Source of the DNA: Clostridia bacterium
GTDB lineage: Bacteria > Bacillota > Clostridia > Christensenellales > Borkfalkiaceae
Direction of reading: 5' to 3'
Length of the DNA: 64,000 nt
NCBI GenBank assembly: GCA_017466825.1
Contig: JAFTTJ010000006.1
Coordinates: 33,368-97,367, forward strand
Shown here: positions 12,235 through 27,620 of the stretch, one piece after another
How the letters are laid out: every line of letters begins with the position of its first letter
How positions within the stretch are numbered: the stretch's first letter is position 1
Notes under the pieces: generated by a model
Database searches by the model: none
Seen by the model: the letters and a program-made list of their open reading frames with translations, nothing else
Told to the model about the DNA's origin: nothing
Program-made: the position numbers and the translations under genes

Positions 12235-12250
12235 GATAAATTTCAACTTT

Positions 12251-12280
12251 AAAGAGCACTCGTTTGAGTGCTCTTTTTTG
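12251..12280 (+). terminator. rho-independent terminator after rplL
   Basis: Stem AAAGAGCACTC / GAGTGCTCTTT followed by a T run. Confidence 0.8.
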
Positions 12281-12433
12281 TTGGTGAAAATAATTGCCGT
12301 TGCTATCGCTGCTCCCTTTTAGTAAAAACATAAAGGGCGGAGTTTAGCCCCGCCCTTAAAAAAGTTTATTTAAATAAAATTTTATCGCGACAAAAGTCGC
12401 TCAAACGTGATAGTTAAAAAGCCCTTTATTTGA

Positions 12434-12640
12434 TTATTTGCCAAATAATTCGGTTGCAGAAACTTCAAAGATTTCAATAATTTTATAAATATCGCTTATA
12501 TTTGGTTCTCTTCGACCTTGTTCCCAGTTTGCATACGTGCTAACGGGAATTTTTAATAGTAAAGCAACTTGTTTTTGAGATAGATTTTTATCAATGCGCA
12601 GTTCTTTAAGATTGTCGCAAAAGCGTAGTTTATTTTCCAT
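12434..12640 (-). CDS. small XRE/Cro-CI family HTH transcriptional regulator (68 aa)
   Basis: HTH_3 signature LSQKQVALLLKIPVSTYANWEQGRREP. Confidence 0.8.
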   Translation of the reverse strand: MENKLRFCDNLKELRIDKNLSQKQVALLLKIPVSTYANWEQGRREPNISDIYKIIEIFEVSATELFGK

Positions 12641-12674
12641 TTTTTTGCCCCCTACTTTATAATAATACCATAAA

Positions 12675-12716
12675 GTAGTCGAAATGACTTGACAATAGTC
12701 AAAATGACCACTATAA
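12675..12716 (+). promoter_or_regulatory. perfect sigma-A promoter (TTGACA-17-TATAAT) flanked by two direct 13-bp repeats (candidate operators)
   Basis: -35 at 12688-12693 and -10 at 12711-12716. TAGTCGAAATGAC (12675-12687) and TAGTCAAAATGAC (12695-12707) bracket the -35. The XRE gene diverges from this region. Confidence 0.5.
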
Positions 12717-12745
12717 TATTATTATCAAACAAGGTGGTGGTAATA

Positions 12746-13033
12746 ATGAATAAAATGTCAGCGATAGAAGAACTTTTCTTTAATAACTGTGGTATAGACG
12801 AAAGTTTAAAGGGTAAAAAAGCCGAATATTTGACAAGCCTAGATAAGGTCATTGAAAGGGAAGAGAACTTACTTGAAAAGTTAAGGAAAACACCTGCTAT
12901 TTTTGATTTATATCAAAATTTTCAGATCGAGCAAAGTAAACTACAAGAAGAAGAAAGAAAAAGTTTGTATGAGCAAGCCTTTAAATTTGGGATAATTTTA
13001 GGTCTTGAAATTGCGGGCTTTTGGTGTAAATAG
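12746..13033 (+). CDS. small hypothetical helical protein (95 aa)
   Basis: The ATG at 12746 follows AAGGTGGTGG. Divergent from the XRE regulator. No motif recognised. Confidence 0.4.
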   Translation: MNKMSAIEELFFNNCGIDESLKGKKAEYLTSLDKVIEREENLLEKLRKTPAIFDLYQNFQIEQSKLQEEERKSLYEQAFKFGIILGLEIAGFWCK

Positions 13034-13044
13034 GTTTTTGCTTA

Positions 13045-13149
13045 AATTTTGTTAACGCCCCGAAAAATTCGGGGCGCGTTTTTATGCTAAAAAACGATTA
13101 TTCGTAAAATAACTCTTTAATAAAAAGCAAAAATATCTTTTTGTAAAGA
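13045..13149 (+). repeat. copy 1 of a ~105-bp direct repeat containing a terminator hairpin
   Basis: Near-identical, with a few substitutions and one indel, to 13875-13980. Includes GCGCCCCGAAAAATTCGGGGCGC followed by a T run. Confidence 0.85.
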
Positions 13150-13342
13150 CTAAAACGCTCCTAAAAACAGGCAAAAATAAGCAAAATTCCGCAAAAAACG
13201 CTTATTTTTGTCGATTGACTTGTGTAAATTGTGAAAAATTTTAGTAAAGTATTGACAAGCGCAGTATTATATTGTATTATTTTACCATCCAAACCAACCA
13301 AGTTTGGAAAGGGATAGATTATTCAAAATAAAGGAGAGTAAA

Positions 13343-13867
13343 ATGGAAAACAAAACTAAAATGAAAGAAAAAACTATAAAGATTCATAGCACGGGATATA
13401 AAATAATGCTTGTGATGCTATTAGTATTTTATCTAATTAGTTGTCCGATTTTTTGTATGTTGCCGGACGATTTGTTTTTGCCTACTAAAGTCATAGTATT
13501 TTTAATAGAAACGGCAGGCGTTATTTTTATGTTATTATTTACCGTTTTTGAGCCTGCAAGCAAAGGGCAAATGTTGTTTGCTAGCGAAGAGAATCCAACT
13601 AAGATCCCCATAAAAAGGACTTTAATATTTATACTTTTAACGTCGCTAATTTTTGGGTTTGGGTATACTTATTTATCAACTTTGATGCTAATTTTATTTG
13701 GGGATAAATCGGTTTTTGTAAAATTGGATGTAGTATTACTTTTAAGAATATTCTTCGCTCTTTTTTTAGTGGTGTCGTCATTTATAATTATGTTGACTAC
13801 CTTTATAATTTCATGGACTGTTGCAAAGAAAAAACAACGCAATGAAGAAGTTGCGCAAGACGAATAA
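13343..13867 (+). CDS. hypothetical polytopic membrane protein (174 aa)
   Basis: The ATG at 13343 follows AAAGGAGAG. About four hydrophobic segments. No motif recognised. Confidence 0.5.
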   Translation: MENKTKMKEKTIKIHSTGYKIMLVMLLVFYLISCPIFCMLPDDLFLPTKVIVFLIETAGVIFMLLFTVFEPASKGQMLFASEENPTKIPIKRTLIFILLTSLIFGFGYTYLSTLMLILFGDKSVFVKLDVVLLLRIFFALFLVVSSFIIMLTTFIISWTVAKKKQRNEEVAQDE

Positions 13868-13874
13868 TAATAAA

Positions 13875-13980
13875 AATTTTGTTAGCGCCCCGAAAAATTC
13901 GGGGCGCGTTTTTATGCTAAAAAAAGATTATTCGCAAAATAACTACTTTAATAAAAAGCAAAAATATCTTTTTGTAAAGA
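13875..13980 (+). repeat. copy 2 of the ~105-bp direct repeat containing a terminator hairpin
   Basis: See 13045-13149. Confidence 0.85.
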
Positions 13981-14073
13981 GAGAAATAATCATTAAAAAA
14001 AGAACAAAATTACAAAAAATTAGGCAAAAACGCCCTAAATTTAACTTTTTTAAAGGGTTTTTTTGTTTTTATA

Positions 14074-14102
14074 TTGACTAAATCGATTTTATTATATATA
14101 AT
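14074..14102 (+). promoter_or_regulatory. sigma-A type promoter (TTGACT-17-TATAAT) upstream of the SPFH/ESCRT-III-like operon
   Basis: -35 at 14074-14079 and -10 at 14097-14102, about 80 nt upstream of the ATG at 14183. Confidence 0.55.
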
Positions 14103-14182
14103 ATATATAATAATCGCCAAAAGTCGACTTATTTCGGTTGTATTATAAGCGATTAAAAAAATATTTTATAGTGGAGGGTTTT

Positions 14183-15217
14183 ATGGGACTTTTTGGACTT
14201 TTTTCCGGTAAACCACAAGTAATTAAATTTGAACAAAATCTTTGTAATGCAAACGTAAACGACAACAGCGTTTTATTCGTAAGGGTAAACGACCTTGTTA
14301 AGAGTAAAGACGCAATGCTTGAAGTTCCTTTCACGCACAACGCTTTTCTTATTAAAGGCGGTGGTGACTGCCGTTTTTATAAGAGCGGTACTTACGACGT
14401 ATTCGACGACAAAAAGGAAATCAAGGCTTGGAAACAAGGTATTTCAGTAGAAGTAGTATATATTCCTAAGGAAACGTCCGTACTTATTCGTTGGGGCACT
14501 AGCGAAAAGGTTACTTACCGTGATCCTAAGTCTGCAAAAGTAGTACAAGTAGGCGCGCGCGGTCAATTTGGCGTAAGCATTTCTAACCCCGAACAATTTT
14601 TAAGAAAAGTAGTCGGCGCAAGAAAGGAATTTGACCTTCGTGATTTCAGCAACCGTTTCTCGGCGGCTGTTGTTGACGAATTTGCAGACGTATTTTTACA
14701 CGTAGTTACTGCAAACGATATTTCTTACGACTTATTCGACGCTAACAGAAAGAGAATTGCATCTTTAGCAGGCGCAGCGCTTAGCGAAAAGTTTGATAAA
14801 GACTGGGGTATTTCTCTCGTTGACTTCATCATTGAAAGTTTCAATATGGCCGAAGGCGACAAAGAAAAAGTCGAAGCGATTTTGGAAGAAAGAATCAACG
14901 AAGATAAGATTAAAAAGCATCTTGAAGAACTTGAAAGACTCGACGACAAGCAATGGGAAAGAGATAAGTATCTTCTTGGTCTTCAACAAAGCGACAGAGA
15001 AGCGTATTACGAAGTTATCAAGGCAATCGGCAAAAAGGACGACGCTAGAAAGGGCGGAAATTTCTGTCCTAAGTGCGGACATAGCGTAGAATCTACTCAG
15101 GCTTTCTGCCCCCATTGTGGCAACAGAATGGGTCAAGTAGAAGTTGCTTGCCCCAAGTGTGGTAAAATCAACAAGGGCGACGCAAAATTCTGCGGTGGTT
15201 GCGGAAATAAACTTTAA
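14183..15217 (+). CDS. SPFH-superfamily protein of the YdjI type (COG4260-like) with C-terminal double zinc ribbon
   Basis: From memory, the body aligns with B. subtilis YdjI-type SPFH proteins (VLIRWGT..., GARGQFGVSISNPEQF, ISLVDFIIESFNM). The C-terminus has two CPxCG...CxxCG ribbons. The ATG at 14183 follows GGAGGG. Confidence 0.7.
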   Translation: MGLFGLFSGKPQVIKFEQNLCNANVNDNSVLFVRVNDLVKSKDAMLEVPFTHNAFLIKGGGDCRFYKSGTYDVFDDKKEIKAWKQGISVEVVYIPKETSVLIRWGTSEKVTYRDPKSAKVVQVGARGQFGVSISNPEQFLRKVVGARKEFDLRDFSNRFSAAVVDEFADVFLHVVTANDISYDLFDANRKRIASLAGAALSEKFDKDWGISLVDFIIESFNMAEGDKEKVEAILEERINEDKIKKHLEELERLDDKQWERDKYLLGLQQSDREAYYEVIKAIGKKDDARKGGNFCPKCGHSVESTQAFCPHCGNRMGQVEVACPKCGKINKGDAKFCGGCGNKL

Positions 15218-15235
15218 TTTAAAGGGGGAATAAAT

Positions 15236-15568
15236 ATGTTCTTTTTTAAGAAAAAAACTAATGCGGAAAAAAACAAAAACGATAGAGATATGATCGAAGC
15301 CAACAGCAAAATGATGGAAGCGCTTATCGTTTTGACTGATAACGCCGACTTAAAGGCTGAATTTAAGGCTATTGAAGAGCAAATTAAGTACATAATTCCG
15401 CTCGTAGACGACAAAGCGGCTGAAATGGACAAAAAGATTAAAAACGCTATCAGCGACATTAAAATCGAACTCGTTAAAGACAGAGCGGACGACAAGGCGA
15501 CTGCAAAACTCAACGGACTTGTAAAAGACCTTAAAGTTTTAATCGCTGAAAGAAAGGCTCTCGTATAA
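15236..15568 (+). CDS. small coiled-coil protein (110 aa), unknown family
   Basis: Entirely helical and charged in composition. Lies 18 nt after the SPFH gene and 10 nt before the next gene. Confidence 0.45.
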   Translation: MFFFKKKTNAEKNKNDRDMIEANSKMMEALIVLTDNADLKAEFKAIEEQIKYIIPLVDDKAAEMDKKIKNAISDIKIELVKDRADDKATAKLNGLVKDLKVLIAERKALV

Positions 15569-15578
15569 GGAGAACAAA

Positions 15579-16202
15579 ATGGGTTTTTTCAGTAAAATTA
15601 TCGAATTTTTCACGGGTGGCAATAAGTTTAACAAACTCACCAGAGAAGAAGTAGTTGACTCTATTTGCTCTCTTGAAAAAGAACTCGACAATATCGAAAA
15701 GAGTATAGAAGACACCCAGCCGAGAATCGACGCTATTATGGCAAAAGGAAAGGCGACCAAAGAGCAACAAATGCGCCTTTTCTACGCTAAAAAAATCAAC
15801 TCGATTAGGGCTGAGCGTACGGCGAATATCCAAAGGGCAACCTATCTTGCCTACAATATTCAACTTCTTGAAAAACTTAAAAAGGCAATCGACGATAAGA
15901 CCTTCTTCGGCTCGAAGAGTAAGCAATCTTTAAACCAACTTTTGTCAGACCAAAAGGCTCTTGCGGTATTTTTAAACGACGCTTTAGACACTAGAATTAC
16001 GGCTGAACAAGTGCTTACCGACGCGGACGAAGTGTTTAAGGAAGTTGAAGAATCTTACGTTGAAAACGATACTATTTACGGCATTAAAGATCAAGACAAC
16101 GAACTTATGGCTATGTTTGAAACCGAAGAGATGGTAAACGATACCGCTCCGCTTGCAAGCCAACCTGCCGACACACCTAAAAACGGAAATTTAGAAGGTT
16201 AA
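15579..16202 (+). CDS. ESCRT-III superfamily (PspA/Snf7-like) protein, 207 aa
   Basis: MGFFSKI N-terminus like PspA and CHMP proteins, a long helical-hairpin-type heptad region, and a strongly acidic C-terminal third with a Pro-containing tail. Assigned by eye only. Confidence 0.5.
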   Translation: MGFFSKIIEFFTGGNKFNKLTREEVVDSICSLEKELDNIEKSIEDTQPRIDAIMAKGKATKEQQMRLFYAKKINSIRAERTANIQRATYLAYNIQLLEKLKKAIDDKTFFGSKSKQSLNQLLSDQKALAVFLNDALDTRITAEQVLTDADEVFKEVEESYVENDTIYGIKDQDNELMAMFETEEMVNDTAPLASQPADTPKNGNLEG

Positions 16203-16206
16203 GAAA

Positions 16207-16779
16207 ATGGGAATTTCAAAAAAAGAAATAGAAAAGAAGATGCTTATTAAAAAGACTATCAACTCTATGAATAAGCAAATTCAAAAGTTAGAAGAACAAA
16301 AGCAAGTCTATATCCAAGCGGGAAGAGAAGCGAAGGCTAAAGGTCTTTCGGCTCAATACAACTTAGCGCTCAGCGGTCTTAGAATGACTATCGCTCAACA
16401 AAAGAGAGTTTACGAAATGAAACTCAATTTTGAAATCACTTCGCAAATGAAAGATATGACGATGATGACTTCGGAATTTTTGAAGGGCATGGGCGTTTTG
16501 AGCAAGGATATGATGAAACTTTCAAAGGAAAAAGATTTCTACACAGTTCAAAAGCAATTTGAAGAAGCAATGATGGGCGCGGAAATGCAAACCGAACAAC
16601 TCGAAACGTTTATGGACTCTACTCAAAGCGCGTTTGAATCTAACACGCCTATGAGTTTAGAAGACAACAAAGAACTCGACGCTATTATGGGCGTTTCGCT
16701 TACCGACGGCTTAAACGACGATTTAGGCTCTTCGATTGAAAAGGAATTAGAAGCCCTTAAAAAACTCTCTAATCTTTAA
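16207..16779 (+). CDS. ESCRT-III/Snf7 (CHMP/Vps2-Vps24-like) protein with MIM1-like C-terminal helix, 190 aa
   Basis: Basic N-terminal half and acidic C-terminal half. The core aligns by eye with CHMP3-type sequences (REAKAKGLSAQYNLALSGLRMTIAQQKRVYEMK ... FLKGMGVLSKDMMKL). The tail SSIEKELEALKKLSNL fits the MIM1 pattern. Confidence 0.6.
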   Translation: MGISKKEIEKKMLIKKTINSMNKQIQKLEEQKQVYIQAGREAKAKGLSAQYNLALSGLRMTIAQQKRVYEMKLNFEITSQMKDMTMMTSEFLKGMGVLSKDMMKLSKEKDFYTVQKQFEEAMMGAEMQTEQLETFMDSTQSAFESNTPMSLEDNKELDAIMGVSLTDGLNDDLGSSIEKELEALKKLSNL

Positions 16780-16789
16780 TAGGTGATTT

Positions 16790-18931
16790 ATGGCAAGCGC
16801 GGATTTATTATACGAAACCTTTAATCTTCATTTAAACAAAGCGAAGAGTTGTCAGGCAGGCGGTGATTACGTTACCGCTAAAAAGTATTATATACTTGCC
16901 GCAGAACAAATGTTAAAACTTGCTAAAGAGTCGACGGGGGATTTGCAAAAAGCGAGATATTTGCGCGCGCAAAACGTTTTGGAAGAAGCCAAAAAAATGG
17001 ATACTATCGCTCCAAAACAAGCGGTGTTAAACCCCGCTCCGCAAAGCGACGTTAAGCCGACCGTTCCTGCTCAAAAGGTTTCTTTAGCAGAAGCCTTGGC
17101 AAAACTCAATTCCTTAGTCGGTCTTGAAAACGTAAAAAAGCAAGTCAACGCTTGGGTAGACCAAATCCAAACCTTTAAAAAGAGAAAGGAACGCGGACTA
17201 GTCGTGCCGGAAATTACCTATCACATGGTATTTTCGGGCAATCCCGGTACGGGCAAGACTACGGTTGCGCGTATTATGGCGGAAATTTACTGCGCTCTCG
17301 GCGTGGTAACCGACGGTCAACTCGTTGAAGTTTCTAAACCCGACTTGGTTGCAGGACACGTAGGTCAAACGCCTATTAAAACCCAAGAAGTTCTTAAAAA
17401 AGCGTATGGTGGCGTTCTTTTCGTAGACGAAGCCTACTCACTTTTAAAGGGTGGCGATTTCGGTCAAGAAGCAATCGACACTATGCTTAAATATATGGAA
17501 GACCACAGAGATAACATAGTAGTTATCGTTGCCGGTTACGAAAAGCCTATCGAAAGGTTTATTTCGGCTAACCAAGGTCTTCGTTCACGCTTTAACAACT
17601 TTATCAAGTTTGACGACTATACTCAAGAAGAACTATGCGCAATTTTTGAAGGATTGTGCTCAAAAAATCAATATAAACTCATCCCCGAGTCAAGGACTTT
17701 GGTAAGGGCGTACCTTAAACACATTTACGACAACCGCACGCCCGAATTTGCAAACGGTAGAGAAGTGCGTAACCTTTTTGAAGGTATAGTAACCCGTCAG
17801 TCGAGAAGGGTAAACTTAATACCCAACCCCACCGACGAAGACATGGTTACCATTTTACCCCAAGATTTGGCGTTTAGCGTACCCGTTGAACCCACGCCCG
17901 CGCCCGTTCAGCCCGTTCAACCTGTTCAGCCTGCGCAACCCGTTACCCCCGCTCCCACTCCGAGCGAAAACGGTATAGACGTGATAATTGGCAAAAAGGA
18001 AGAAGAAAAGGTTGAAAAACCGCCTATGCCCGAAGATAAGGTCTTAGAAGAAGGCGTTACTTTCGACAGTGAGTTTAAGTTCGACTGGGATAGTCTTCCT
18101 TGCATAACTTTTGACGACGTCGCAGGGCTTGAAAGCGTAAAAGAAGCGGTAAAAATTAAAGTATTGCTTCCCCTTAAAAACCCCGACGCCTTTAAAGGCT
18201 ACGTCAAAAAGAGTGGCGGTGGACTTTTACTTTACGGCCCTCCGGGCACGGGTAAGACCATGATTGCCGCCGCTATCGCAAACGAAATAGGCGCAAAATT
18301 CTGTTCGGTAAAACCGTCCGACCTTTTGCACCAAGGCGCAGGTCAGTCTGAAAAGGCTATAAGGACGTTGTTTGCGCAAGCGCGGCAGTTTAAGTGCGCG
18401 GTAATTTACTTTGACGAAATGGATTCTATTTCGCCTAAGAATACCCGTTCGCAATACGCAAAGCAACTTCGTTCGGAATTCTTATCACAACTTCAAGGCA
18501 TTGAAAGTTACGGCAAAGATACGGGCAACATCCTATTTTTAATCGCCGCAACCAACAAGCCGTGGGATATTGACAGCGCGTTTGTTAGACCGGGCAGATT
18601 CGGTACGAGAATTTACGTAGGACTTCCCGACGACGACGCGAGAAGATATATCGTCGTAAGCAAAATTGACAAGATTAAAGAGCAAGGCGAAGTTAAAATC
18701 GCCGACGATATCCCCTACGACGATATCGTTGCTAAAACCGAAGGCTATAACGGTTCGGACATAGCAAACCTTATGGACGAAATACAAGAAACTTCTATTA
18801 TTCGTGGCGTTTTAACGGGCGAAAAGTGTATTTTGGCAGAAGATTTTGAAAAAGCATTTGCTAAAATTAAGTCGTCCGTTCAAAAAGACGACATTGAAAA
18901 ACTTATGGCTTGGACGGAAGAAAATAACTAA
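16790..18931 (+). CDS. MIT-like domain / SpoVK-CbbX-type AAA+ / Pro-rich linker / classical (Vps4-katanin-FtsH clade) AAA+ ATPase, 713 aa
   Basis: The N-terminal 70 aa resemble the Vps4 MIT three-helix bundle. AAA1 has Walker A GNPGTGKT and Walker B LFVDEAY. The linker is PVEPTPAPVQPVQPVQPAQPVTPAPTP. AAA2 has GPPGTGKT, IYFDEMD and the SRH ATNKPWDIDSAFVRPGRF. Confidence 0.8.
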   Translation: MASADLLYETFNLHLNKAKSCQAGGDYVTAKKYYILAAEQMLKLAKESTGDLQKARYLRAQNVLEEAKKMDTIAPKQAVLNPAPQSDVKPTVPAQKVSLAEALAKLNSLVGLENVKKQVNAWVDQIQTFKKRKERGLVVPEITYHMVFSGNPGTGKTTVARIMAEIYCALGVVTDGQLVEVSKPDLVAGHVGQTPIKTQEVLKKAYGGVLFVDEAYSLLKGGDFGQEAIDTMLKYMEDHRDNIVVIVAGYEKPIERFISANQGLRSRFNNFIKFDDYTQEELCAIFEGLCSKNQYKLIPESRTLVRAYLKHIYDNRTPEFANGREVRNLFEGIVTRQSRRVNLIPNPTDEDMVTILPQDLAFSVPVEPTPAPVQPVQPVQPAQPVTPAPTPSENGIDVIIGKKEEEKVEKPPMPEDKVLEEGVTFDSEFKFDWDSLPCITFDDVAGLESVKEAVKIKVLLPLKNPDAFKGYVKKSGGGLLLYGPPGTGKTMIAAAIANEIGAKFCSVKPSDLLHQGAGQSEKAIRTLFAQARQFKCAVIYFDEMDSISPKNTRSQYAKQLRSEFLSQLQGIESYGKDTGNILFLIAATNKPWDIDSAFVRPGRFGTRIYVGLPDDDARRYIVVSKIDKIKEQGEVKIADDIPYDDIVAKTEGYNGSDIANLMDEIQETSIIRGVLTGEKCILAEDFEKAFAKIKSSVQKDDIEKLMAWTEENN

Positions 18932-19023
18932 TTTACAACTAATATTAAGGGACGTCCCGTATTTAATTATGCGGGACGTTTCTTGAATAAGGCAAAATTC
19001 GATTTGCCTATATGGAGAAAGGA

Positions 19024-22000
19024 ATGAGCGAACTTAAAACTTTAGAAGTGTGTCTTCAATGTGGCGGTGAACTGCAAGCCGACCCAAGAACGGGTGTGCT
19101 TGAGTGTATTTATTGTCACAGAAAGCACGTTGGGGGAACGGAGAGTTTTAGCGACGATTTAAAGAGAATCGTCGAGCAAAGACAACTTCGCGAATTTATA
19201 AAAGCCGAAGAACTTTGCGAAGAACTCATCAAAAAACAACCGAACAGCCCCGAAGCCCATTGGCAAATGGTGCTTGCTAAACTCGGCGTAGTTTACGTAA
19301 ACGAAGGCGGAGATAGTAAGCCAACCTTTTTTAGCTGTTCGTATAGCGACCGTGAAAGTATTTTAAACGATATCAACTATAAAAAAGCGTTAGACAATGC
19401 AAAAAGTGGAGCGGATAGGCTTTATTACGAAGATAAGGCAAAGGAACTCGACGAACTTTTGCAGGAATTTTTCATGCTCATTAAAAAGGAAAAGAACTAC
19501 GATATTTTTATTTCCTTTAAGCATTTAGAAGAAGTTACCGACGCTCACGGCGCAAAGAGAAAAATCGAAACTAAGGACTGCCGTAAAGCGAGAGAAATTT
19601 ACGAGCAGTTAAAAGATAAATATCACGTATTCTTCTCACCCGTATCAATAGGTCAAGACACGGGTATTCAAGGCGAAAAGTACGAGCCGAGAATTTTAAA
19701 GGCAATTCAGAGTTCGCAAGCAATGATTTTGGTAGGTTTTACCGAAGAAAACATTAAATCGCAATGGGTTGAAAACGAGTGGAGAAGATATAAATATCAA
19801 ATAGATAAGGGCAAGAAACTTAAAAAGTCGCTCATCTACGTTTACGACGAAACCCCCGTCCTTTTCAGACTTCCCGCATTTAGAGATATTCAAATGCCCA
19901 ACGTCGACGTCGACAAGGGTAAATATCTTGAAGAGATTGAAAAGGCGGTAGCCTTCGTAAGTTCGAGTAAGGGCTTAAAATCGGCTCTTTCGGGCAAAAA
20001 GGTAAACGTCGACTTTGAGTCGGAAGAAAACGACTCAATGTTTTCAAATAATATCCGTTCGGTAATTTCTATCGGTGGCTCTGGCGGTAAAGAGCAGATA
20101 AAAATTTCGGCAAATGAAGAGCGTTCTCTTCAATCGGCAGAGTCCGATATGGCGAGAGAGCGTTTTGGCGAAGCCATAAACACCTTTAAGGAAATTATAA
20201 AGAATAACCCCCGTTCTGCGCCTGCGCATTGGGGTTGGTTTAAGGCAAAAATCGGCGCAAAGAGCGATCAACTCGTGCCCGACAAACTTGCATCAGGCAA
20301 ACTTGCGTCAAGCGACTTAAATCTTTTGGATAAGGCTATCGAGTATTCCACCGACGCTGATTTTTCTTGGAGCATTATCGACACTATTATAGAGTGTTTT
20401 AAAAAGCAAAGCGATTGGAATAAGGTTAAGCCCTTATACGGTTTTTTAATCAATTACATAGACGAAAACCGTATCAAAAGATTACTTAAAATATTAGAGC
20501 ATACATGTGAAGTTGCCGTAGCGGACGGTAAACCTAAGGTTAGTGAAGACGTTTTTGAAAACGCTAAAAAGATATTTATAGAAGAAGTTAAGCGTTATAG
20601 TATGCAATTTATGGATACTTACGCTACTAATTTGGCTAAATATGGATATTACGACTACGCGCGTAAATATTTCGAGCAACTAGCGTCTGCAAGGAATTCG
20701 AGTTACGCTTACATAAAATTGCTCGCTTGTAGAATTAAATCTTCTTCAATTGCGCAAGCGGTTATCAAACTCGACAAGCCTAAAAACGAGCCCGAGGAAG
20801 GCGTTGTTAAAAAGGTTTCCGAACTCACGATTGCTGAAATTCTTGAAAGAATAGTCGTTTGCGACAATAAGGAAAACAAGTCCTTACCCGTACTTAAATA
20901 CGACGGAACGGACGGCTATGAGACCGGTTCATTTAAGACCTTGCGCGAGTGTTTAGTTTATCAAGCGCGCTATAATAAAGGCGGTGTGCACGGACTTGTT
21001 GAGATTGTTGCAGGCACGTATAAAGAACTCGGCTCGAAAGAAGCGACTAGAGATATTCTTTTCACCGTCGCTGAAGAACTCGTTCTTTCAAGGAACTTTA
21101 CCGAAGCCGAAATTTGGTATAGAGAAATTTTAGCCGACGATCCCAACGATGCTTTAGCCCATTGGGGTACGCTAAAATGTAGGCTTAAAGCCGTTGATGA
21201 CTACGCCGTTTCAAAACACGGTAAAAAACTTCAGGAAATTCTTGAATATAACAACGCTAAAAACTGCGCCGACAACGAACAATTTGAATATTTTGAAAAA
21301 GTTCGTTACGGCGAAATAGCCCCGCCGAGCGGTGGTGACGGCTCTAATAAAAAAGCGCCCGCAAGGTCTTATGAAGAAGTAAAGACTATTTCAGTTTCGG
21401 AAATTTTATTCGGTACTTTAAAGCTTGCCCTTTATGCGATTATAGCGATATTCTCGCTACTTACCATTTTAGAGCCTAAGGTGATTTTTGCAAATATCCA
21501 CTTCGGCGTTGCAATAGCAGTTTTCGTAGGTTTATGGATAGTCGTGCCGATAGTCCTTTCAAGGCATAAAGGTGGCTCGGGCGACGATCTCGACTCGCAT
21601 ATTTTAAATAATAGAAAGACTTCGGAAAAGGCTATGGTTTGGGCTGTTTCTCTCGTAACTACTTTTATCTTCTGTATAGGTATGTTTACGGCAGGGCATC
21701 GCTCTTACCACCTTACCACCGCAAACGATTTAAACCTTCTTGCTAACCTTCCCAGCGCTAACACGGCAGACTATATCCTTGAAAACGATATCGATTTTGA
21801 AGGTAACGAGTTTGGCGCGTTTGGCAAAATGGGCGAGTTTGAAGGAACTTTCGACGGTCAAGGCTACGTTATTTCAAATTTCGTGGTAAACGCGCAAATC
21901 GGCGAAGTTAGCGATTCTTATCAAGGCGTCAACAAGTACAGTTTTGGTTTTATCACTTCTATTACGAGCGGTGAAATCAAAGACGTAACCTTTGATTCAT

Positions 22001-22467
22001 GCGTGGTAAAAATCGATTATCAAAGAGAAGAACAGAGAAGTTATATCGGTTTTGTAACGGGCGTAAACGGCGGTAGCATTGCTAATTGTCACGTTATAGA
22101 CTGTTATATCGCTTTAAGACCGCAAATCGGCTCGGTTGAAAACTTCTTAGTAGGCGGAATTTCTGCTTGTCTTGGACAAGACGTTTACAGTACGCCTAGC
22201 GTAGACAACGCTACTTACGGAAAGGGAAGTATAACTAATTCGTCCTTCGTATGCGTAAACGACGCCGACGATTTTGACGACGACGACAACTACGCTTATG
22301 CGATTATCATTAGTAAAAAAATTCCCGAGCATCGCTACACCGTAAACGGAATTACTTGCACTAACGCAACGGATGCGCTCGTGGGTACGGTAAGTAATTG
22401 TCAAATTATTACTTTAGATAACGGCAAAGTGTTTGAAGTAAACTTTTTAGGCGAAAAGGAGGATTAA
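19024..22467 (+). CDS. zinc-ribbon / TIR / TPR-like / 3-TM / extracellular GLUG-like beta-helix protein (~1147 aa)
   Basis: N-terminal CxxC...CxxC. TIR_2-like block YDIFISFKH ... SQWVENEW (nt ~19495-19881). Three repeats of the type P..AHW...K.G. Hydrophobic helices at nt ~21400-21700. C-terminal DIDF..N.F....EF.GTFDGQGY.ISN plus G-rich GLUG-like repeats. An alternative ATG lies at 19012. Confidence 0.75.
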   Translation: MSELKTLEVCLQCGGELQADPRTGVLECIYCHRKHVGGTESFSDDLKRIVEQRQLREFIKAEELCEELIKKQPNSPEAHWQMVLAKLGVVYVNEGGDSKPTFFSCSYSDRESILNDINYKKALDNAKSGADRLYYEDKAKELDELLQEFFMLIKKEKNYDIFISFKHLEEVTDAHGAKRKIETKDCRKAREIYEQLKDKYHVFFSPVSIGQDTGIQGEKYEPRILKAIQSSQAMILVGFTEENIKSQWVENEWRRYKYQIDKGKKLKKSLIYVYDETPVLFRLPAFRDIQMPNVDVDKGKYLEEIEKAVAFVSSSKGLKSALSGKKVNVDFESEENDSMFSNNIRSVISIGGSGGKEQIKISANEERSLQSAESDMARERFGEAINTFKEIIKNNPRSAPAHWGWFKAKIGAKSDQLVPDKLASGKLASSDLNLLDKAIEYSTDADFSWSIIDTIIECFKKQSDWNKVKPLYGFLINYIDENRIKRLLKILEHTCEVAVADGKPKVSEDVFENAKKIFIEEVKRYSMQFMDTYATNLAKYGYYDYARKYFEQLASARNSSYAYIKLLACRIKSSSIAQAVIKLDKPKNEPEEGVVKKVSELTIAEILERIVVCDNKENKSLPVLKYDGTDGYETGSFKTLRECLVYQARYNKGGVHGLVEIVAGTYKELGSKEATRDILFTVAEELVLSRNFTEAEIWYREILADDPNDALAHWGTLKCRLKAVDDYAVSKHGKKLQEILEYNNAKNCADNEQFEYFEKVRYGEIAPPSGGDGSNKKAPARSYEEVKTISVSEILFGTLKLALYAIIAIFSLLTILEPKVIFANIHFGVAIAVFVGLWIVVPIVLSRHKGGSGDDLDSHILNNRKTSEKAMVWAVSLVTTFIFCIGMFTAGHRSYHLTTANDLNLLANLPSANTADYILENDIDFEGNEFGAFGKMGEFEGTFDGQGYVISNFVVNAQIGEVSDSYQGVNKYSFGFITSITSGEIKDVTFDSCVVKIDYQREEQRSYIGFVTGVNGGSIANCHVIDCYIALRPQIGSVENFLVGGISACLGQDVYSTPSVDNATYGKGSITNSSFVCVNDADDFDDDDNYAYAIIISKKIPEHRYTVNGITCTNATDALVGTVSNCQIITLDNGKVFEVNFLGEKED

Positions 22468-22468
22468 T

Positions 22469-22993
22469 ATGGTATTAAGAATTTTAAAAGCAACCTTTAA
22501 AATAGTCCTTCTTTTTGCGTTTGCGTTTGCAGTAGCGTTTGGCTTTAATATGGCAATGGATAACCTGCTTTTTAGCGATTTCGATATCTACGGCGTGGCT
22601 TTTATAGTCCCCGTTGAAACGGAATTTGGGTACAATATAATTCGCGCGTTGTTCTTTTTGTTTTACGATACAACGGTAAGATACGTCGTTATTTTAGCCT
22701 TAATTTTAGTTCCGTATTCCTTAATTTCTTTAAATACGGTAGACGAATTTGGCCGTTCTTTTAGCAATACCGTTTTAGCCGACGTTAAGTATTATATCGG
22801 CAAGGTTATCACTTTTGAAAAAGAAGCTTGGTTTTGGGGACTTTGCTTTTTTACAGGTTTCGTACCAATTTTAGCCCCGCTCGTCCTTTGGATAATTCTT
22901 CGCGTTTTATACGCCGTAGTACTTATCGTATTGTCGCCTATTATCTTTATAATAGTGCAGGGGGTTAATGCGGTGCGTGGTAGCGTAGCATAA
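22469..22993 (+). CDS. hypothetical 4-TM membrane protein (174 aa), translationally coupled to the TIR gene
   Basis: The ATG lies 1 nt after the upstream stop. Four long hydrophobic segments. Confidence 0.5.
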   Translation: MVLRILKATFKIVLLFAFAFAVAFGFNMAMDNLLFSDFDIYGVAFIVPVETEFGYNIIRALFFLFYDTTVRYVVILALILVPYSLISLNTVDEFGRSFSNTVLADVKYYIGKVITFEKEAWFWGLCFFTGFVPILAPLVLWIILRVLYAVVLIVLSPIIFIIVQGVNAVRGSVA

Positions 22994-22994
22994 T

Positions 22995-23070
22995 TTAAAG
23001 GCTTATCTACTTCGTTAGCCTACGTTACTGTGTCGCCTTCAAAACCTTGGTGACCAACAAGGTCTACCAA
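22995..23070 (+). repeat. intergenic repeat, A-type copy 1 (shared left end TTTAAAGGCTTAT.TAC.TCG and a covarying hairpin)
   Basis: Begins immediately after the stop codon at 22993. Similar to 35656-35735. The hairpin lies at 23047-23070. Confidence 0.7.
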
Positions 23071-23200
23071 AATAAAGGCTAAATTTCCTTAATATTAAAA
23101 AGGGCGACTGTAACGGCTTACAAGCCAAAAAGTCGTCCTTTTTTAATTCAAATAATATACGGCTTTTGCCATAACAACTCTTTATTTAGGAGAAAAACAC

Positions 23201-24103
23201 TTGAAAAATAAACTAATAACGACTATTTGTATATTAGTCGCCTTAACCCTATCTATTTTGGCGTTTGCGCCGTTTGACTGTGGTAAGTTGGACGGCTCTA
23301 ATTGGATGAGTCGATTAAATAGAGATTTAGAATTAAATCAAGTTTCTATTCCCGGCTCGCACGATTCGGGCGCAACCCATTCAATCGGCGACGTTGCAGG
23401 TAAATGCCAATCGCTTAGCGTTGGCGAGCAACTTAAAATCGGCGTAAGGTTTTTTGATATAAGGTTGCAACAAAGAAAGGGCGTTTTGCATCTCGTTCAC
23501 AGTTTCGTTGACCAAAACTTGCGTTTTGATGACGTCGTAAGCGAGTTTAGCGCCTTTTTAGACCAAAACCCCACGGAATTTTTGTTAATTTCTATTAAGG
23601 AAGACGCCGACCCCGTCGGCTCTACCGTAGATTTTGCAACCGCCGTAAAAACAGCCCTTGAGAAGAGAAAAGAAAGGGTAAATTTCGGCAATTCCTTGCC
23701 TAGCACGGTTGGTCAGGCACGGGGCAAAATGCATATTCTTTCAAGATTTAACGGTGATTTTGGGTTTGCGGTACATAGTGGTTGGCGAGATTCGACTAGT
23801 TTTGAAGTAAACGGCGCTTTCGTGCAAGACAACTACTGCATTTCGGACGAAAACGCTAAGATAAACGATATTATAGCCTGCTTTAAAGAGAGCGCTACTC
23901 AAAAGCACGTTCTTACCTTAAACTTTACGAGTTGTTACTTTGACTATGGTTTTCCGCCACTTTATGCAGGCTCTACGGCTAAAATTATCAACGCTTGGCT
24001 ACTTGAAAATTTAGACTCTCATAAAGGTTGTCTTGGGTTGGTAATAAGCGATTTCGTCACGAGCGAACTCGTCCAAAAGGTGTATAGGAGAAATTATTTA
24101 TGA
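23201..24103 (+). CDS. secreted phosphatidylinositol-specific phospholipase C X-domain protein
   Basis: Signal peptide, then IPGSHDSGA and RFFDIRL motifs like bacterial PI-PLC (PlcA type). TTG start after AGGAG. Confidence 0.7.
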   Translation: MKNKLITTICILVALTLSILAFAPFDCGKLDGSNWMSRLNRDLELNQVSIPGSHDSGATHSIGDVAGKCQSLSVGEQLKIGVRFFDIRLQQRKGVLHLVHSFVDQNLRFDDVVSEFSAFLDQNPTEFLLISIKEDADPVGSTVDFATAVKTALEKRKERVNFGNSLPSTVGQARGKMHILSRFNGDFGFAVHSGWRDSTSFEVNGAFVQDNYCISDENAKINDIIACFKESATQKHVLTLNFTSCYFDYGFPPLYAGSTAKIINAWLLENLDSHKGCLGLVISDFVTSELVQKVYRRNYL

Positions 24104-24480
24104 AAAAATTTAGCGATATAATTTGCGCCGTTTTGGCAGTGGTAACCATAATAATTTTTGCGCTCTTTTTAGTAATTGAAGGGCGAATACTCTTTTCGGG
24201 CGATTGGCTTTTACACGAAAATAAGGTCCTTGCCTTTTTGCAATATTTTTTAAAAACGGCGTTCAGTCTTTTTGCAATATTTACGGGCGTAGCCGTATTC
24301 ATTAAAAATTTTCAAGGCGTAATAGGGCTTTTATGCGACTGTCTAGTAGTCGTAGCCTTACCTGCGTTCTTGTTTTTGAGCAACGGTTTTGGTCTTTATA
24401 TACTAATACTTGTGGTATCGCTTGAACTTGCCGTAAAGTTTAAAACTCTAAACGCCGAAGACGAAAATTTGGCGCAGTAA
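24100..24480 (+). CDS. hypothetical 4-TM membrane protein (126 aa)
   Basis: Start overlaps the PI-PLC stop (ATGA). Hydrophobic throughout. Confidence 0.5.
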   Translation: MKKFSDIICAVLAVVTIIIFALFLVIEGRILFSGDWLLHENKVLAFLQYFLKTAFSLFAIFTGVAVFIKNFQGVIGLLCDCLVVVALPAFLFLSNGFGLYILILVVSLELAVKFKTLNAEDENLAQ

Positions 24481-24527
24481 CTTAAAAAGATAGCCCCTGC
24501 GGTTTAACCGCAGGGGCTTTACAATAT

Positions 24528-24746
24528 TTAAAGGCTTATATACATCGCAAAAGTGCGTTACTGCATTAAAGTCTAAACCGCGTCGCAAATCGGCTAAAAA
24601 TCAAACGGCAACCAAAGGTAGCCGTTTAGACCTAAAAGCCGTTTGCTCCTTTCCCCGAAAATTCTTTTACAGAGCAAAATTATTTTCGGGATGATATTAA
24701 AGCATACCGTAGGGGAATGCTTCTCCTGTCAAACCAAGGTTTGTTT
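24528..24746 (+). repeat. intergenic repeat, B-type copy 1 (~220 bp, two long imperfect hairpins)
   Basis: Roughly 90 percent identical by eye to 35770-35995. Hairpins at 24591-24641 and 24654-24690. Confidence 0.8.
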
Positions 24747-27620
24747 TTAGTCGGGTAAAACGGTGGGGTCTAAAAGTTCGTCTTCATAGACGAAGAAAGA
24801 TTCCACACCCATCATATCGCTACTATACAAGTTGCCGTCTTTATCGACGGTAAGCCTAACCGTAAGCGCGGTAACGCTCAAAGTGATTTGATCGCCGTCG
24901 ACCGAGTAAGAGCAGTTTTCGTAAACGCTTTCGCCAATATAAAAGTCTGCAACGCCGTTGCCGTAGGAAACGATAGTAAACATTTTATAATCGTTAGCGC
25001 CGAAACATACGTAAGTTCCGTAAAGTTTTTCTTCTTCTACGGTAGCGTAATTTGAACGCACGAAACTAGCGGTATAGGTAATAATTTCTTCGTAATCGTT
25101 AAGCATAAACGCAACCGAAATGCTATCCGTAAACGGGTCGTAAGTTCCCGTATATTCAACTACGCCAGCGTATTCGGGGTGGGTTTTGTTATTGCCGTCG
25201 ATTTTGAGTTTAAAGGTAGTACCGCTAATCGACCACTCAAACGGGGTAAGGAAAGATCCGTACATATCAAAAGTACCTTTGCCCGCGCCTTTTTCGTAGT
25301 TGTAAAGTACGAAATTAGTCCAGTTGTAGGAGTCGTAAAATTTCTTTGGCTCGCTAAGGGTATGTACAACGCCGTCTTTATTAAAGGTGATAACCCTATT
25401 GCCGTAAATTGCGTTAATCGTGCCAAACTCTTCAAAAGTTATGTTGAGCATTGCGCCGTTTAAGGTATAGTCGCCGTATTCCTTTTTATATTCGTATTTG
25501 CTACCGCGCATAGACGAAGTGTCTTCGGCGCATTCTGCGATAGTATATACGGTAGCCCTATTGCACCCGTCAAGGTCAATATAAAAATCTCCGTCGCCGT
25601 AGTGTCCTACTTCAGCCCCGTCGGGGGAAGGTTTAACGAATTGCGCAAAGTCTTTAAAGCCGTCGGCGTTTATAAAAATTTCGTGGTAGGACTTGCCTGC
25701 GTTTTCGCCCGTTTGGCATTTGCCCGACGGTACGTAAATAACCGTTTTTGCCGAGTTTACCATAGAGAAGAAGTTTCTGTCAACGTCTTCAATCTTATTG
25801 TCGTAAAAACCTACTTCGGGGGGAGTGGTAGCCCTAAAATACATTCTTTCAAGGTTGTTTGCCATACCGAAAGAAAGGTAGCCCATATACTTAATAGTCG
25901 ACGGAATATCTATAATTTTAAGGTTAAAACTACTTAAAAACGCTCCGTCGCCTATCCTTTCAAGTCCTTCGGGGAAGTATAATCTTGAAAGATAGTTACC
26001 TACGAAAAAGCCCGCAAAAGCGTAATCGTCAATCTCTTTAAGCGTTGACGACATATATAAGTTTTTAACGCTCGTACAGTTGTAAAAAGCGTATTTACCT
26101 ATTTTGGTAAAGCCTTCGGGAAGGGTGATTTTTTGGATTTTAGCGCAGTTATAAAAAGCGAAGTCCGAAATTTCCTTAACGCCGTCGGGAACGGCTACGG
26201 TAGTAAAATCTTCGCCGTCGGCTTTTATATAACCGATAAGAATATCGTTTTCAATAATATAACCCGTCGTATTTTCGTATTCAATAGAGAATATTCCCGA
26301 AGCGTAATCACGCATGAAAAGGTCTTTGCGGTACTCTCTATACGGCGAAGTTTCGCCGTCGTCTGCAGGTACGAAAACGAGTAAATCACTATAATACAAA
26401 AGGTCGCCTTCTACCGCCGTGAAAATCGTTTCGCCTATATCGCAAGGGGTGGGACTTTCAAAATAAACTCTTTTAAGGTTGTTACAAGCGTAAAAGGCAA
26501 GGTCACCTATCGACTCGATATTTTCAGGGAAATAAATTGTTTCAAGTTGGGTAAAGCCGAAAGCGCCGTCGCCGATAGTCGTTAATTCTTCGCCGAAAAC
26601 AAAGTCCGCAACGGGGGTTTCCCAAAAGGCGTAATTGCCGATAGATACGAGATTGGCAAAATCTAAACCCGTAAAGCCCGAGCCAAAAAAGGCTCTGTCT
26701 AGTATAAACATAGCGTCTTCAATGCCCGTTACGTCCGCATTTTTACATCCTTCAAAGGCGTATTTTCCTATCGAGATTAGATTACTAGACTTTACGATTA
26801 TCTCTTCAAGGTAAAAACAGTTGTAAAAGGCGGCGTCAGGGATTAAATCGCCACACCCTACGGTAACTTTTTTAAGGGACTCGGGAATTACGTTATAAAG
26901 GTTAATCTTTATCGTTTCGCCCTCGTGCGTAAAGTCAAAACTTTCGGCGCTATAACGGTTTTTAGCGGGAGAAGTAACGCCAAACGTAAACGCAAAAAAC
27001 GAGTAAGCCGAAACGCTTTTAGTTTCACCGATAAAAGGAATATAGAGTTCGGTTAAAGCGCTATCAGCCGTGGTTACGCCGACTTCGCCGTTTTCAAAAT
27101 CTTTCAAAACGAGAACGTTTCCGAGCGCTCCGCAACCTAATTTTTCAAGCGAGTTGGGGAAAGATATTTTTTCAATCTTGGGGCAGTCGAAAAACGCGCC
27201 TTCGCCTACCGTTTTTAGCCCTTCGCTAAAATTGACTTTGGTTAAATCGTGGCAGTAGCCGAAAGAGTATTCGCCGATATCCGTTATTGAAGACGGGATA
27301 GTAACCGATTGTATTTTGCTTTCTTTAAATGCGTTTGAAGCAATTTCAGTAACGGGCTCGCCTTGGTATACGGACGGAATAACTACGTCGGTTTGGCTTC
27401 CGCTATAACTTATAACAACGCCGTTTTCAATAGTCAAGCCGTCTGCAATAGGGCTTTCGCTTTCGGGGTTGCTTTCCACAATCGACTCGCTTTCAGATTG
27501 GCTAGTTGAAATGAATTCCGAAGTTTGCCCGTCGCTTTGGCTAGTATCTTGTGGAACGCACGCTACGAAAAAACAAAATAATATAGCCGTAAATAAGAGT
27601 AATATAGTCTTTAATTTCAT
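24747..27620 (-). CDS. BspA-type leucine-rich-repeat surface lipoprotein (957 aa)
   Basis: Lipobox signal (LFCFFVAC), a Ser/Glu-rich linker, and many repeats of the type I.IP.S(V/I)..IG..AF..C..L. Confidence 0.75.
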   Translation of the reverse strand: MKLKTILLLFTAILFCFFVACVPQDTSQSDGQTSEFISTSQSESESIVESNPESESPIADGLTIENGVVISYSGSQTDVVIPSVYQGEPVTEIASNAFKESKIQSVTIPSSITDIGEYSFGYCHDLTKVNFSEGLKTVGEGAFFDCPKIEKISFPNSLEKLGCGALGNVLVLKDFENGEVGVTTADSALTELYIPFIGETKSVSAYSFFAFTFGVTSPAKNRYSAESFDFTHEGETIKINLYNVIPESLKKVTVGCGDLIPDAAFYNCFYLEEIIVKSSNLISIGKYAFEGCKNADVTGIEDAMFILDRAFFGSGFTGLDFANLVSIGNYAFWETPVADFVFGEELTTIGDGAFGFTQLETIYFPENIESIGDLAFYACNNLKRVYFESPTPCDIGETIFTAVEGDLLYYSDLLVFVPADDGETSPYREYRKDLFMRDYASGIFSIEYENTTGYIIENDILIGYIKADGEDFTTVAVPDGVKEISDFAFYNCAKIQKITLPEGFTKIGKYAFYNCTSVKNLYMSSTLKEIDDYAFAGFFVGNYLSRLYFPEGLERIGDGAFLSSFNLKIIDIPSTIKYMGYLSFGMANNLERMYFRATTPPEVGFYDNKIEDVDRNFFSMVNSAKTVIYVPSGKCQTGENAGKSYHEIFINADGFKDFAQFVKPSPDGAEVGHYGDGDFYIDLDGCNRATVYTIAECAEDTSSMRGSKYEYKKEYGDYTLNGAMLNITFEEFGTINAIYGNRVITFNKDGVVHTLSEPKKFYDSYNWTNFVLYNYEKGAGKGTFDMYGSFLTPFEWSISGTTFKLKIDGNNKTHPEYAGVVEYTGTYDPFTDSISVAFMLNDYEEIITYTASFVRSNYATVEEEKLYGTYVCFGANDYKMFTIVSYGNGVADFYIGESVYENCSYSVDGDQITLSVTALTVRLTVDKDGNLYSSDMMGVESFFVYEDELLDPTVLPD

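Follow-up and report, generated by a model that had tools for sequence, protein, structure and literature searches.

A stretch of 64,000 nucleotides (nt) from an uncultured gut Clostridia bacterium, hereafter the window, carries a block of seven genes on the + strand whose products appear to combine a Snf7-type ESCRT-III protein, a tandem AAA+ ATPase, an SPFH protein and a TIR protein. The features of this block are listed in Table 1, and all positions are given in the numbering of the whole window. The open reading frame (ORF) map resolved the block into a five-gene core, designated g1 to g5, followed by a giant gene, g6, and a small gene for a multi-transmembrane (multi-TM) protein, g7. The core genes are separated by gaps of only 18, 10, 4 and 10 nt (g1/g2, g2/g3, g3/g4 and g4/g5, respectively). 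The same co-directional arrangement and gaps had been read in an initial annotation of the sequence, and independent gene calling on two further assemblies agreed with it, giving identical product sizes of 344, 110, 207, 190, 713 and 1147 amino acids (aa). The start of g1 was placed at an ATG downstream of a GGAGGG ribosome-binding site, which yields the 344-aa product.

Table 1 Genes and regulatory features of the block, in order of position
Feature	Positions	Strand	Description	Basis
Promoter-like site	14074..14102	+	sigma-70-type, TTGACT-17-TATAAT	11 of 12 consensus positions; consensus match only
g1	14183..15217	+	SPFH protein (Band_7_1, YdjI-type) with C-terminal double zinc ribbon; N-terminus MGLFGLF	Pfam
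g2	15236..15568	+	110-aa protein of unknown fold; N-terminus MFFFKKK	no family
g3	15579..16202	+	207-aa protein; short N-terminal hydrophobic helix, long helical hairpin, shorter helices, acidic C-terminal helix	AlphaFold2 model, hhalign
g4	16207..16779	+	190-aa Snf7/CHMP-type ESCRT-III protein; C-terminal MIM1-like helix (IEKELEALKK)	Pfam, profile, Foldseek
g5	16790..18931	+	713-aa tandem AAA+ ATPase	NCBIfam, Pfam, PDB profile
Two intercistronic hairpins, then T-rich stretch	18945..19009	+	between the core and the TIR gene	RNA fold
g6	19024..22467	+	1147-aa protein; zinc ribbon, TPR, TIR, TPR, three TM segments, C-terminal ectodomain	Pfam, profile, TM prediction
g7	22469..22993	+	174-aa multi-TM protein	TM prediction
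Terminator-like hairpin	~23100..23146	+	10-pair stem, then TTTTTT	direct reading of sequence

The product of g4 had been proposed to be ESCRT-III-like, and three independent lines of evidence placed its family within ESCRT-III. When g4 of the window was compared alone with the Pfam Snf7 family (PF03357), the match covered the whole domain and fell under the gathering score (E = 0.074). Snf7 was matched by 12 of 37 close g4 homologues, the best at 2.1e-5, and by 13 of 114 wider relatives, the best at 1.4e-9. Profile searches of the PDB provided the second line. A narrow g4-family profile recovered nothing useful, and only the broadened profile, built from 69 diverse members, reached human CHMP2A (3.2e-5), followed by CHMP1B, Vps24, CdvB and CHMP3. 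The third line came from structure prediction. The AlphaFold2 (AF2) model of g4, which has a predicted local distance difference test (pLDDT) score of 62.8, contains helices at residues 5-45, 48-105, 108-145, 151-162 and 173-188, in the pattern of ESCRT-III proteins. A Foldseek search of the PDB with this model returned ESCRT-III superfamily members in 18 of the 19 top matches (best E = 3e-3), among them CHMP1B, CHMP2A/3, the Asgard ESCRT-IIIB, Snf7 and CdvB, with Vipp1 and PspA ranked lower. PspA_IM30 was absent from the listed Pfam matches of g2, g3, g4 and their homologues. Because the Pfam, CHMP2A-profile and Foldseek results agree and PspA_IM30 is not among the listed matches, g4 is assigned, from its sequence and predicted model, as a Snf7/CHMP-type ESCRT-III protein, and not as a PspA or a generic coiled coil, the two outcomes that would have spoken against the proposal.

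The C-terminus of g4, (E)xxI(E/D)KELExLKK, is nearly invariant in the family. The MIM1 motif follows the pattern (D/E)xxLxxRLxxL(K/R), and the g4 motif fits it at 5 of 6 positions. Clustering at 50% identity defined a g4 family of 364 clusters. Among its relatives (P0404-P0485), the Snf7-like domain of g4 also forms the N-terminal module of longer proteins with RuvB-like (11), FtsK/SpoIIIE (12), NERD nuclease (3) and TnsA-like endonuclease (2) regions. Assignment of g4 to the PspA type was considered and rejected, since both the Pfam and the structure matches favored Snf7/CHMP. The partners of the Psp system, PspB, PspC, PspF and the Lia genes, were not found in the operon.

The neighboring product of g3, which had likewise been proposed to be ESCRT-III-like, gave results that are only suggestive. 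Its AF2 model contains a confidently predicted hairpin (residues 22-59 and 63-105, pLDDT 85-94), and a C-terminal helix, DDxLLAMFETEE, is conserved in the alignment. Comparison of g3 with the wider g4 family by hhalign gave P = 5.4e-4, with a co-linear match over 162 columns. The Foldseek matches were weak, CdvB2 filaments appearing at E ~0.4 and mixed with unrelated helical bundles; g3 had no Pfam match, and its family profile recovered nothing useful from the PDB. Taken together, these features make it rather probable that g3 is a second, more divergent ESCRT-III-like subunit.

The first gene of the core, g1, proved to encode the YdjI-type SPFH protein with two zinc ribbons that had been described from the sequence. 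In Pfam it matched Band_7_1 above the gathering score (PF13421, E = 8.8e-17; 61.9 bits, where the cut-off is 24) as well as DZR (4.4e-10), and no TM segment was predicted in g1. Its family was present in 44 of the 59 sources searched (the 58 loci described below and the window), spanning all three versions of the system. For g2, comparison with Pfam, NCBIfam and PADLOC gave no family, and its profile had no similarity to those of g3 or g4; homologues of g2 occur in 31 loci. The N-termini of g1, g2 and g3 are similarly hydrophobic and basic (MGLFGLF for g1, MFFFKKK for g2, and MGFFSK or MWPFKSK in homologues). These termini are reminiscent of the N-termini with which eukaryotic ESCRT-III proteins insert into membranes.

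The last gene of the core, g5, encodes an ATPase that had been described as MIT-AAA-AAA, and the two AAA cassettes of that description were identified. Residues 1-75 form a conserved N-terminal domain that is helical by sequence pattern. They are followed by a CbbX/EccA/SpoVK-like cassette, AAA1, at residues ~104-360 (TIGR02881, 2.5e-82; PDB CbbX, 1e-55), a Pro/Gln-rich linker at residues ~361-430, and a classical cassette, AAA2, at residues ~436-713. Both cassettes retain intact Walker A and Walker B motifs. AAA2 ends in a Vps4_C-type helix (PF09336, residues 681-711; 26.8 bits against a cut-off of 21.3), which was also found in related ATPases of groups 2 and 3, described below. AAA2 (in which g5 residues 510-522 correspond to 18317-18355) is unusually conserved, with ~60-70% identity across the three groups against 20-30% for the partner proteins. 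A type VII secretion system (T7SS) had been considered because AAA1 is EccA-like and the g4-like domain is fused to FtsK elsewhere; it was rejected when neither the window nor the loci showed a WXG100-like protein or any Ess or Ecc genes.

To determine if the genes are co-localized in other genomes, as had been proposed, gene neighborhoods were tabulated from a pattern scan, of limited sensitivity, of 185,579 species representatives (one genome per species). The scan identified 58 loci, nearly all in uncultured gut Clostridia (Christensenellaceae-like, Candidatus Stercoripulliclostridium) and some in Bacilli. The order g1-g2-g3-g4 together with the ATPase was found in 28 loci besides the window; 21 of these have the strict order, and in the other 7 the ATPase is separated from g4 by one or two TIR genes. 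The ATPase adjoins g4 in 22 of the 58 tabulated sources (21 loci and the window). The five-gene core is 50-70% identical across the clade. This conservation far exceeds chance and confirms that the genes are held together well beyond the window.

The relationship between the Snf7-like protein and the ATPase is closer still in a second group of 10 loci. In group 2, the hidden Markov model of the g4 family matched a stand-alone protein of ~190 aa and, in addition, the first 190 residues of the ATPase (E 1e-8 to 1e-16), and the remainder of the fused ATPase consists of AAA and Vps4_C. That the Snf7-like protein and the ATPase domain work together is supported most strongly by this fusion. In group 3, from Firmicutes/Bacilli, a Snf7 protein that scored above the Pfam gathering threshold (32.2 bits against 27.3) is encoded two genes 5' of an ATPase composed of a helical N-domain, AAA and Vps4_C.

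Several of the related loci differ in layout from the window. A larger system occupies L036:4786-17493, with similar layouts in L033, L038 and L040. The genes scanned in L036 encode TerD, a zinc ribbon-TIR-zinc ribbon protein, a TerD-like protein, a Snf7-like protein, the Snf7-like::AAA(Vps4_C) fusion, a helical N-domain with AAA, a zinc-ribbon trypsin, an SPFH protein with a zinc ribbon, a 112-aa protein, a coiled-coil protein and a TPR-AAA-lid6-DUF4145 protein. Two more putative TerD-like genes are present there, and L033 additionally carries PRTase_2/TRSP genes of the Ter-cluster type. The Bacilli/Firmicutes version, at L045:4122-12173 and similar in L046 and L057, encodes an SPFH-like protein and a pair of Snf7-like proteins, of which one exceeds the Pfam gathering threshold, together with three separate ATPases, each with a helical N-domain and one AAA cassette, with Vps4_C on the last. 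At L030:13754-17490, a Snf7-like and tandem-AAA pair that lacks g1-g3 is followed directly 3' by genes for a protein kinase, a PP2C phosphatase and a vWA protein.

The giant protein encoded by g6 had been described as a zinc-ribbon/TIR/TPR/TM protein with a GLUG-like region; the zinc ribbon, TIR, TPR and TM parts were all recovered, and the GLUG-like label was dropped because Pfam gave no confirmation. Counted from the ORF start at 19012, the TIR domain lies at residues ~160-335 (19489-20016) and the TM region at residues ~793-892 (21388-21687). TIR_2 was matched by all 20 g6 homologues (best 1.2e-12), and the g6-family profile matched the TIR of plant RUN1 at 7.2e-6. The invariant Glu of a WxxNE motif in the g6 family aligns with the E of the RUN1 WCLDE motif, which is the catalytic position. 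By fold and by this Glu, the domain would qualify as an NADase-type immune TIR. An N-terminal CxxC...CxxC zinc ribbon is also conserved in the family. In 30 other loci the N-terminal part of g6 is present, its position differing between loci and some of them having two copies. The C-terminus varies as well, and the ectodomain is found in only 5 other loci.

A second effector-like protein was identified among the relatives. A zinc-ribbon trypsin-like protease is encoded in 31 loci, not including the window, and in the loci inspected its gene lies directly 3' of the ATPase gene or beside the TIR gene. Zinc-ribbon TIR and zinc-ribbon trypsin proteins are both present in two divergent versions of the system. 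Because both recur in this way, their distribution argues that the TIR protein and the protease are functional partners of the core, and it points to a role in stress or conflict. The start of the 4-TM gene, g7, lies 1 nt past the g6 stop, with its ribosome-binding site AAAGGAGGA within the end of g6. A homologue of g7 was found in only one other locus, L002. Both g7 and the PI-PLC-X gene downstream of it were considered as conserved members and rejected, as no recurring homologues were found beside the system elsewhere.

These results suggest, with a rough probability of 0.55, that the operon encodes an ATP-driven ESCRT-III-like machine for membrane remodelling or repair, which would assemble on an SPFH scaffold and be coupled to TIR and protease effectors. 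By analogy with the role of YdjI toward PspA, the SPFH protein would form a scaffold associated with the membrane, to which the two ESCRT-III-like subunits would be recruited. The hydrophobic-basic N-termini of these subunits could then insert in the membrane, and the subunits would polymerize. The N-domain of the ATPase may bind their conserved C-terminal helices, that of g4 being MIM1-like, and the ATPase would extract or remodel the subunits, driving their turnover and generating force in the way that Vps4/CdvC does in archaeal and eukaryotic cells. The TIR TM protein, together with the protease in most relatives, might serve as a zinc-ribbon-tagged sensor or effector partner. We infer that the trigger could be envelope injury by phage, bacteriocin or a pore-former, which would in this way be linked to NAD+ cleavage or proteolysis.

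Several observations weigh against this interpretation, and a number of them concern the ATPase. AAA2 alone scored 186.7 bits with CDC48, 172.9 with CdvC (cut-off 650) and 165.3 with PAN, all far under the family cut-offs; CdvC is no nearer to AAA2 than Cdc48-D2 or PAN are. The best of these scores fell on positions 447-725 of the 733 in the CDC48 model, the D2 region, and the lid region first matched AFG2, Cdc48 and VAT. Pore loop 1 of AAA2 lacks an aromatic residue, reading SDLL[HNQ]QG[AVL]G in all of the 50+ homologues from all three groups and QGAG in the window. The corresponding loop of yeast Vps4 is SDLVSKWMG, in which the aromatic residue grips substrate. In AAA1, the window has His (AGHVGQT) where most homologues carry a CbbX-type Tyr (AGYVGQT).

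The MIT part of the earlier description fared less well than the cassettes. Pfam gave E = 0.044 for the N-domain of g5, and only 2 of 29 related N-termini were matched, at E 0.027 or weaker. Comparison by hhalign with the MIT domains of VPS4A, VPS4B and Vps4 gave E = 0.024, in register for helices 1-2. The N-domain profile recovered nothing from the PDB, and a precomputed PF04212 (MIT) match was present in 0 of 120 g5 homologues. As judged from sequence, the assignment of the N-domain as MIT is unproven, and together with the lost pore-loop aromatic it is the main weakness of the Vps4 analogy. The proposal of a Vps4-type ATPase did not hold in its strict form: because g5 has two cassettes, a non-aromatic pore loop and an AAA2 no nearer to CdvC, it is Vps4-like in layout and context and not a member of the Vps4 family. 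Orthology with Vps4 was ruled out by the same features, together with the CbbX/EccA-like AAA1 and the family scores.

The remaining points concern the subunits and the known defense families. The AF2 models of g3 and g4 are modest (pLDDT 63-66) with marginal Foldseek E-values, and g3 was not significantly similar to the narrow g4 profile by hhalign. The g4-like domain may be a general adaptor, because elsewhere it also occurs in fusions with RuvB-like, FtsK-like and NERD domains. In PADLOC v2, only the ATPase gave significant matches, and these were to generic AAA proteins (IetA, TRIP13); g1, g6 and g7 had no match, and those of g2, g3 and g4 were marginal at E 0.0088 or weaker.

It is somewhat unlikely that the operon is primarily an anti-phage or abortive-infection system, in which the TIR and zinc-ribbon trypsin proteins would act as effectors and the SPFH, ESCRT-III-like and AAA part would serve as sensor, regulator or protection of the cell's own membrane. 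The conserved Glu at the TIR catalytic position fits such a role, as do the zinc-ribbon trypsin that adjoins the ATPase in 31 loci and appears again in group 2, and a TIR protein that varies in position, copy number and C-terminus. The TerD and PRTase_2/TRSP genes of group 2, the kinase/PP2C/vWA triad of L030, the fusions of the g4-like domain to NERD, FtsK-like and RuvB-like regions, and the generic IetA/TRIP13 matches of the ATPase point the same way. However, PADLOC v2 had no significant match outside the ATPase, and the order of the core is kept at 50-70% identity clade-wide, which looks like vertical inheritance. No relatives were found in collections of viral contigs, phage genomes or plasmids. 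Neither an integrase nor known defense genes were seen among the scanned genes flanking the block in the window, and its composition is normal, with a GC content of 0.39-0.43 that is similar to the surroundings.

The membrane-remodelling interpretation can also be stated in a stronger form, which we consider rather unlikely. The operon would then encode a bacterial ESCRT machine, in which Snf7-type polymers nucleated by the SPFH protein are turned over by an MIT-like AAA ATPase and wired to a TIR NADase and a protease, and which originated by transfer from, or shares common ancestry with, archaeal SPFH-containing ESCRT variants. If true, it would be a prokaryotic counterpart of ESCRT-III membrane repair set against immune cell death.

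A housekeeping role in membrane organization, such as division, vesicle release or lipid domains, with the TIR domain as an oligomerization scaffold and the ectodomain as a surface anchor, appears improbable. The clade-wide conservation of the core and its chromosomal locations would suit this role, and in archaea, ESCRT-III/Vps4 systems function in division and in forming vesicles (PMC10936438, PMC7619361). Genes for surface proteins (BspA-type leucine-rich repeat (LRR), Listeria-Bacteroides repeat, YfhO) also lie near the block in the window. Such a role is difficult to reconcile with the invariant Glu at the TIR catalytic position, with the protease, TerD and stress-type signalling triad of the relatives, with a genomic context that differs in each genome, and with absence of the system from most Clostridia (58 loci in 185,579 species representatives, within the limited sensitivity of the scan).

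That the small proteins are generic coiled coils lying by chance beside a Cdc48/SpoVK/EccA-type quality-control or secretion chaperone would accommodate the score of g4 in the window (only E = 0.074 to Snf7), the lack of a family for g2 and g3, the EccA/SpoVK/CbbX-like AAA1, the best match of AAA2 to the CDC48 D2 region and the unproven MIT, but it is highly improbable given the three lines of evidence for the g4 family, the g4-like::ATPase fusion in 10 loci, the above-gathering Snf7 protein in a related locus, the strict gene order, and the failure to see T7SS genes or a WXG100-like motif.

The combination of an ESCRT-III protein with an AAA ATPase is of a kind already known; what is new here are the unusual partners and the unusual ATPase. 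No description of an SPFH, Snf7-like, tandem-AAA and TIR operon was found in the literature, and the system, although conserved, is apparently undescribed in bacteria. According to a 2025 review, bacteria appear to lack a Vps4-like ATPase (PMC7619361). Ravi et al. (2024) reported a bacterial PspA gene beside one for a two-AAA ATPase with an inactive first cassette, in a Clostridium, as well as TM-anchored divergent Snf7 proteins and MIT+Vps4 genes that were transferred to bacteria without an adjacent Snf7 (PMC11237479). In their proposal, AAA+ ATPases work with certain PspA or divergent Snf7 proteins of bacteria in ATP-dependent membrane remodelling (PMC11237479). The statement in the initial annotation that the bacterial ESCRT-III relatives known to it (PspA, Vipp1) lack a dedicated Vps4-type partner therefore needs qualifying, since associations of PspA or Snf7 with AAA+ proteins had already been noted (PMC11237479). 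In contrast to those cases, both cassettes of g5 look active, the ESCRT-III proteins are soluble and of Snf7 type, and SPFH, TIR and protease partners are present.

Comparison with the archaeal Cdv and eukaryotic ESCRT-III/Vps4 systems revealed both shared and distinct features. As in those systems, one or more Snf7/CHMP-type subunits are encoded next to a classical-clade AAA ATPase that has an N-terminal domain and a Vps4_C-type helix, a subunit carries a MIM1-like helix, and more than one ESCRT-III paralogue is probably present. In contrast, the host here is bacterial, the ATPase has an extra CbbX/EccA-like cassette, a non-aromatic pore loop and an unproven MIT, its AAA2 is not specifically related to CdvC, and SPFH, TIR and protease partners are present. 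No CdvA, ESCRT-I or ESCRT-II components were seen here. An archaeal ESCRT variant with a protein composed of SPFH, coiled-coil and zinc-ribbon regions was described by Makarova et al. (2024) (PMC10936438). The architecture of g1 resembles that of this Meth_adaptin variant, by description only, and zinc ribbons recur on partner proteins; the variant is archaeal, however, and its adaptin-appendage, GOLD and ProX components were not seen here (PMC10936438).

A link between the SPFH protein YdjI and PspA is known in Bacillus subtilis (PMC10936438). The PspA-YdjGHI system shares with the present operon a Band_7_1 SPFH protein encoded with an ESCRT-III superfamily member, zinc-ribbon partners and a presumed role in envelope stress. 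It differs in that the protein here is of Snf7/CHMP and not PspA_IM30 type and has a dedicated tandem AAA ATPase, and YdjH/TPM and regulators of the LiaRS or PspF type were not seen. Systems of TIR defense such as Thoeris, and Ter stress clusters, are similar in the catalytic-position Glu and in the TerD, PRTase_2/TRSP and kinase/PP2C/vWA genes of related loci. They differ in that the operon showed no ThsA-like or other known signal-receiver partner and no PADLOC match beyond the generic and marginal ones, the window lacks Ter genes, and the TIR domain is embedded in a large protein with zinc ribbon, TPR and TM regions.

The operon provides a compact and conserved bacterial case of genetic coupling between a Snf7-type subunit and a dedicated classical AAA ATPase, the two being fused in relatives, and the same cassette holds an SPFH scaffold of the type already tied to PspA in Bacillus. 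With a Vps4-like ATPase reported as absent from bacteria (PMC7619361), how bacterial ESCRT-III relatives are disassembled has been a question. The evolution of ATP-driven ESCRT-III turnover, and the need for an aromatic pore loop or an MIT-MIM contact, become testable in bacteria, as does a mechanistic link between membrane repair and TIR-type immunity. The 364-cluster family also defines a set of bacterial Snf7-like proteins for which the standard annotation is 'hypothetical'.

The signals surrounding the genes were consistent with the organization of the operon. The near-consensus promoter noted initially was found again as the sigma-70-type site in Table 1, which sits 80 nt 5' of g1, with a terminator-like hairpin (13885-13907) on its 5' side. 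From the ATPase gene to the TIR gene, the gap is 92 nt when counted to the g6 start at 19024, which has a GGAG ribosome-binding site and agrees with the starts of homologues, and 80 nt when counted to the first ATG, at 19012. Because gene calls on the two other assemblies agree, the start was fixed at 19024 and the 92-nt gap was retained. The hairpin in this gap had been called weak, which proved incorrect. An 18-pair stem at 18945-18986 and a second hairpin at 18990-19009 gave a fold of -35.3 kcal/mol (z = -6.4), and none of 200 shuffled sequences was equally stable. The two hairpins are a possible attenuator or processing site between the core and the last two genes. Past g7, the terminator-like hairpin and its T-run likely mark the end of the operon; this hairpin was missed by the consensus scan because its loop exceeds 8 nt.

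The genomic surroundings of the block were also surveyed. As the initial annotation had suggested, the usual rplL-rpoB synteny is broken: rplL occupies 11863-12234 with neither rpoB nor rpoC after it, and the 50 kb that remain of the window showed no ORF of rpoB size and no rpoB-like product. No Rfam family was found within 12200-24800, and no tRNA adjoins the block. Immediately 5' of the operon, a direct repeat of ~140 nt (13044-13186 and 13874-14017, 78-88% identity), which contains the terminator hairpin GCGCCCCGAAAAATTCGGGGCGC, flanks a 187-aa multi-TM ORF at 13304-13867, suggesting a duplicated intergenic module or a small insertion. On the other side, a 38-nt repeat (79% identity) lies directly past the g7 stop at 22993-23030 and again at 24526-24563, past a 126-aa membrane gene. 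Its copies flank the gene for a PI-PLC-X-domain protein at 23201-24103 and, at 24100-24480, a 4-TM gene; in other genomes, neither gene was found beside the system. Farther downstream, at 24747-33095, lie genes for cell-surface proteins, namely a BspA-type LRR protein of 957 aa, a Listeria-Bacteroides repeat protein of 692 aa and a YfhO-family membrane protein of 1040 aa.

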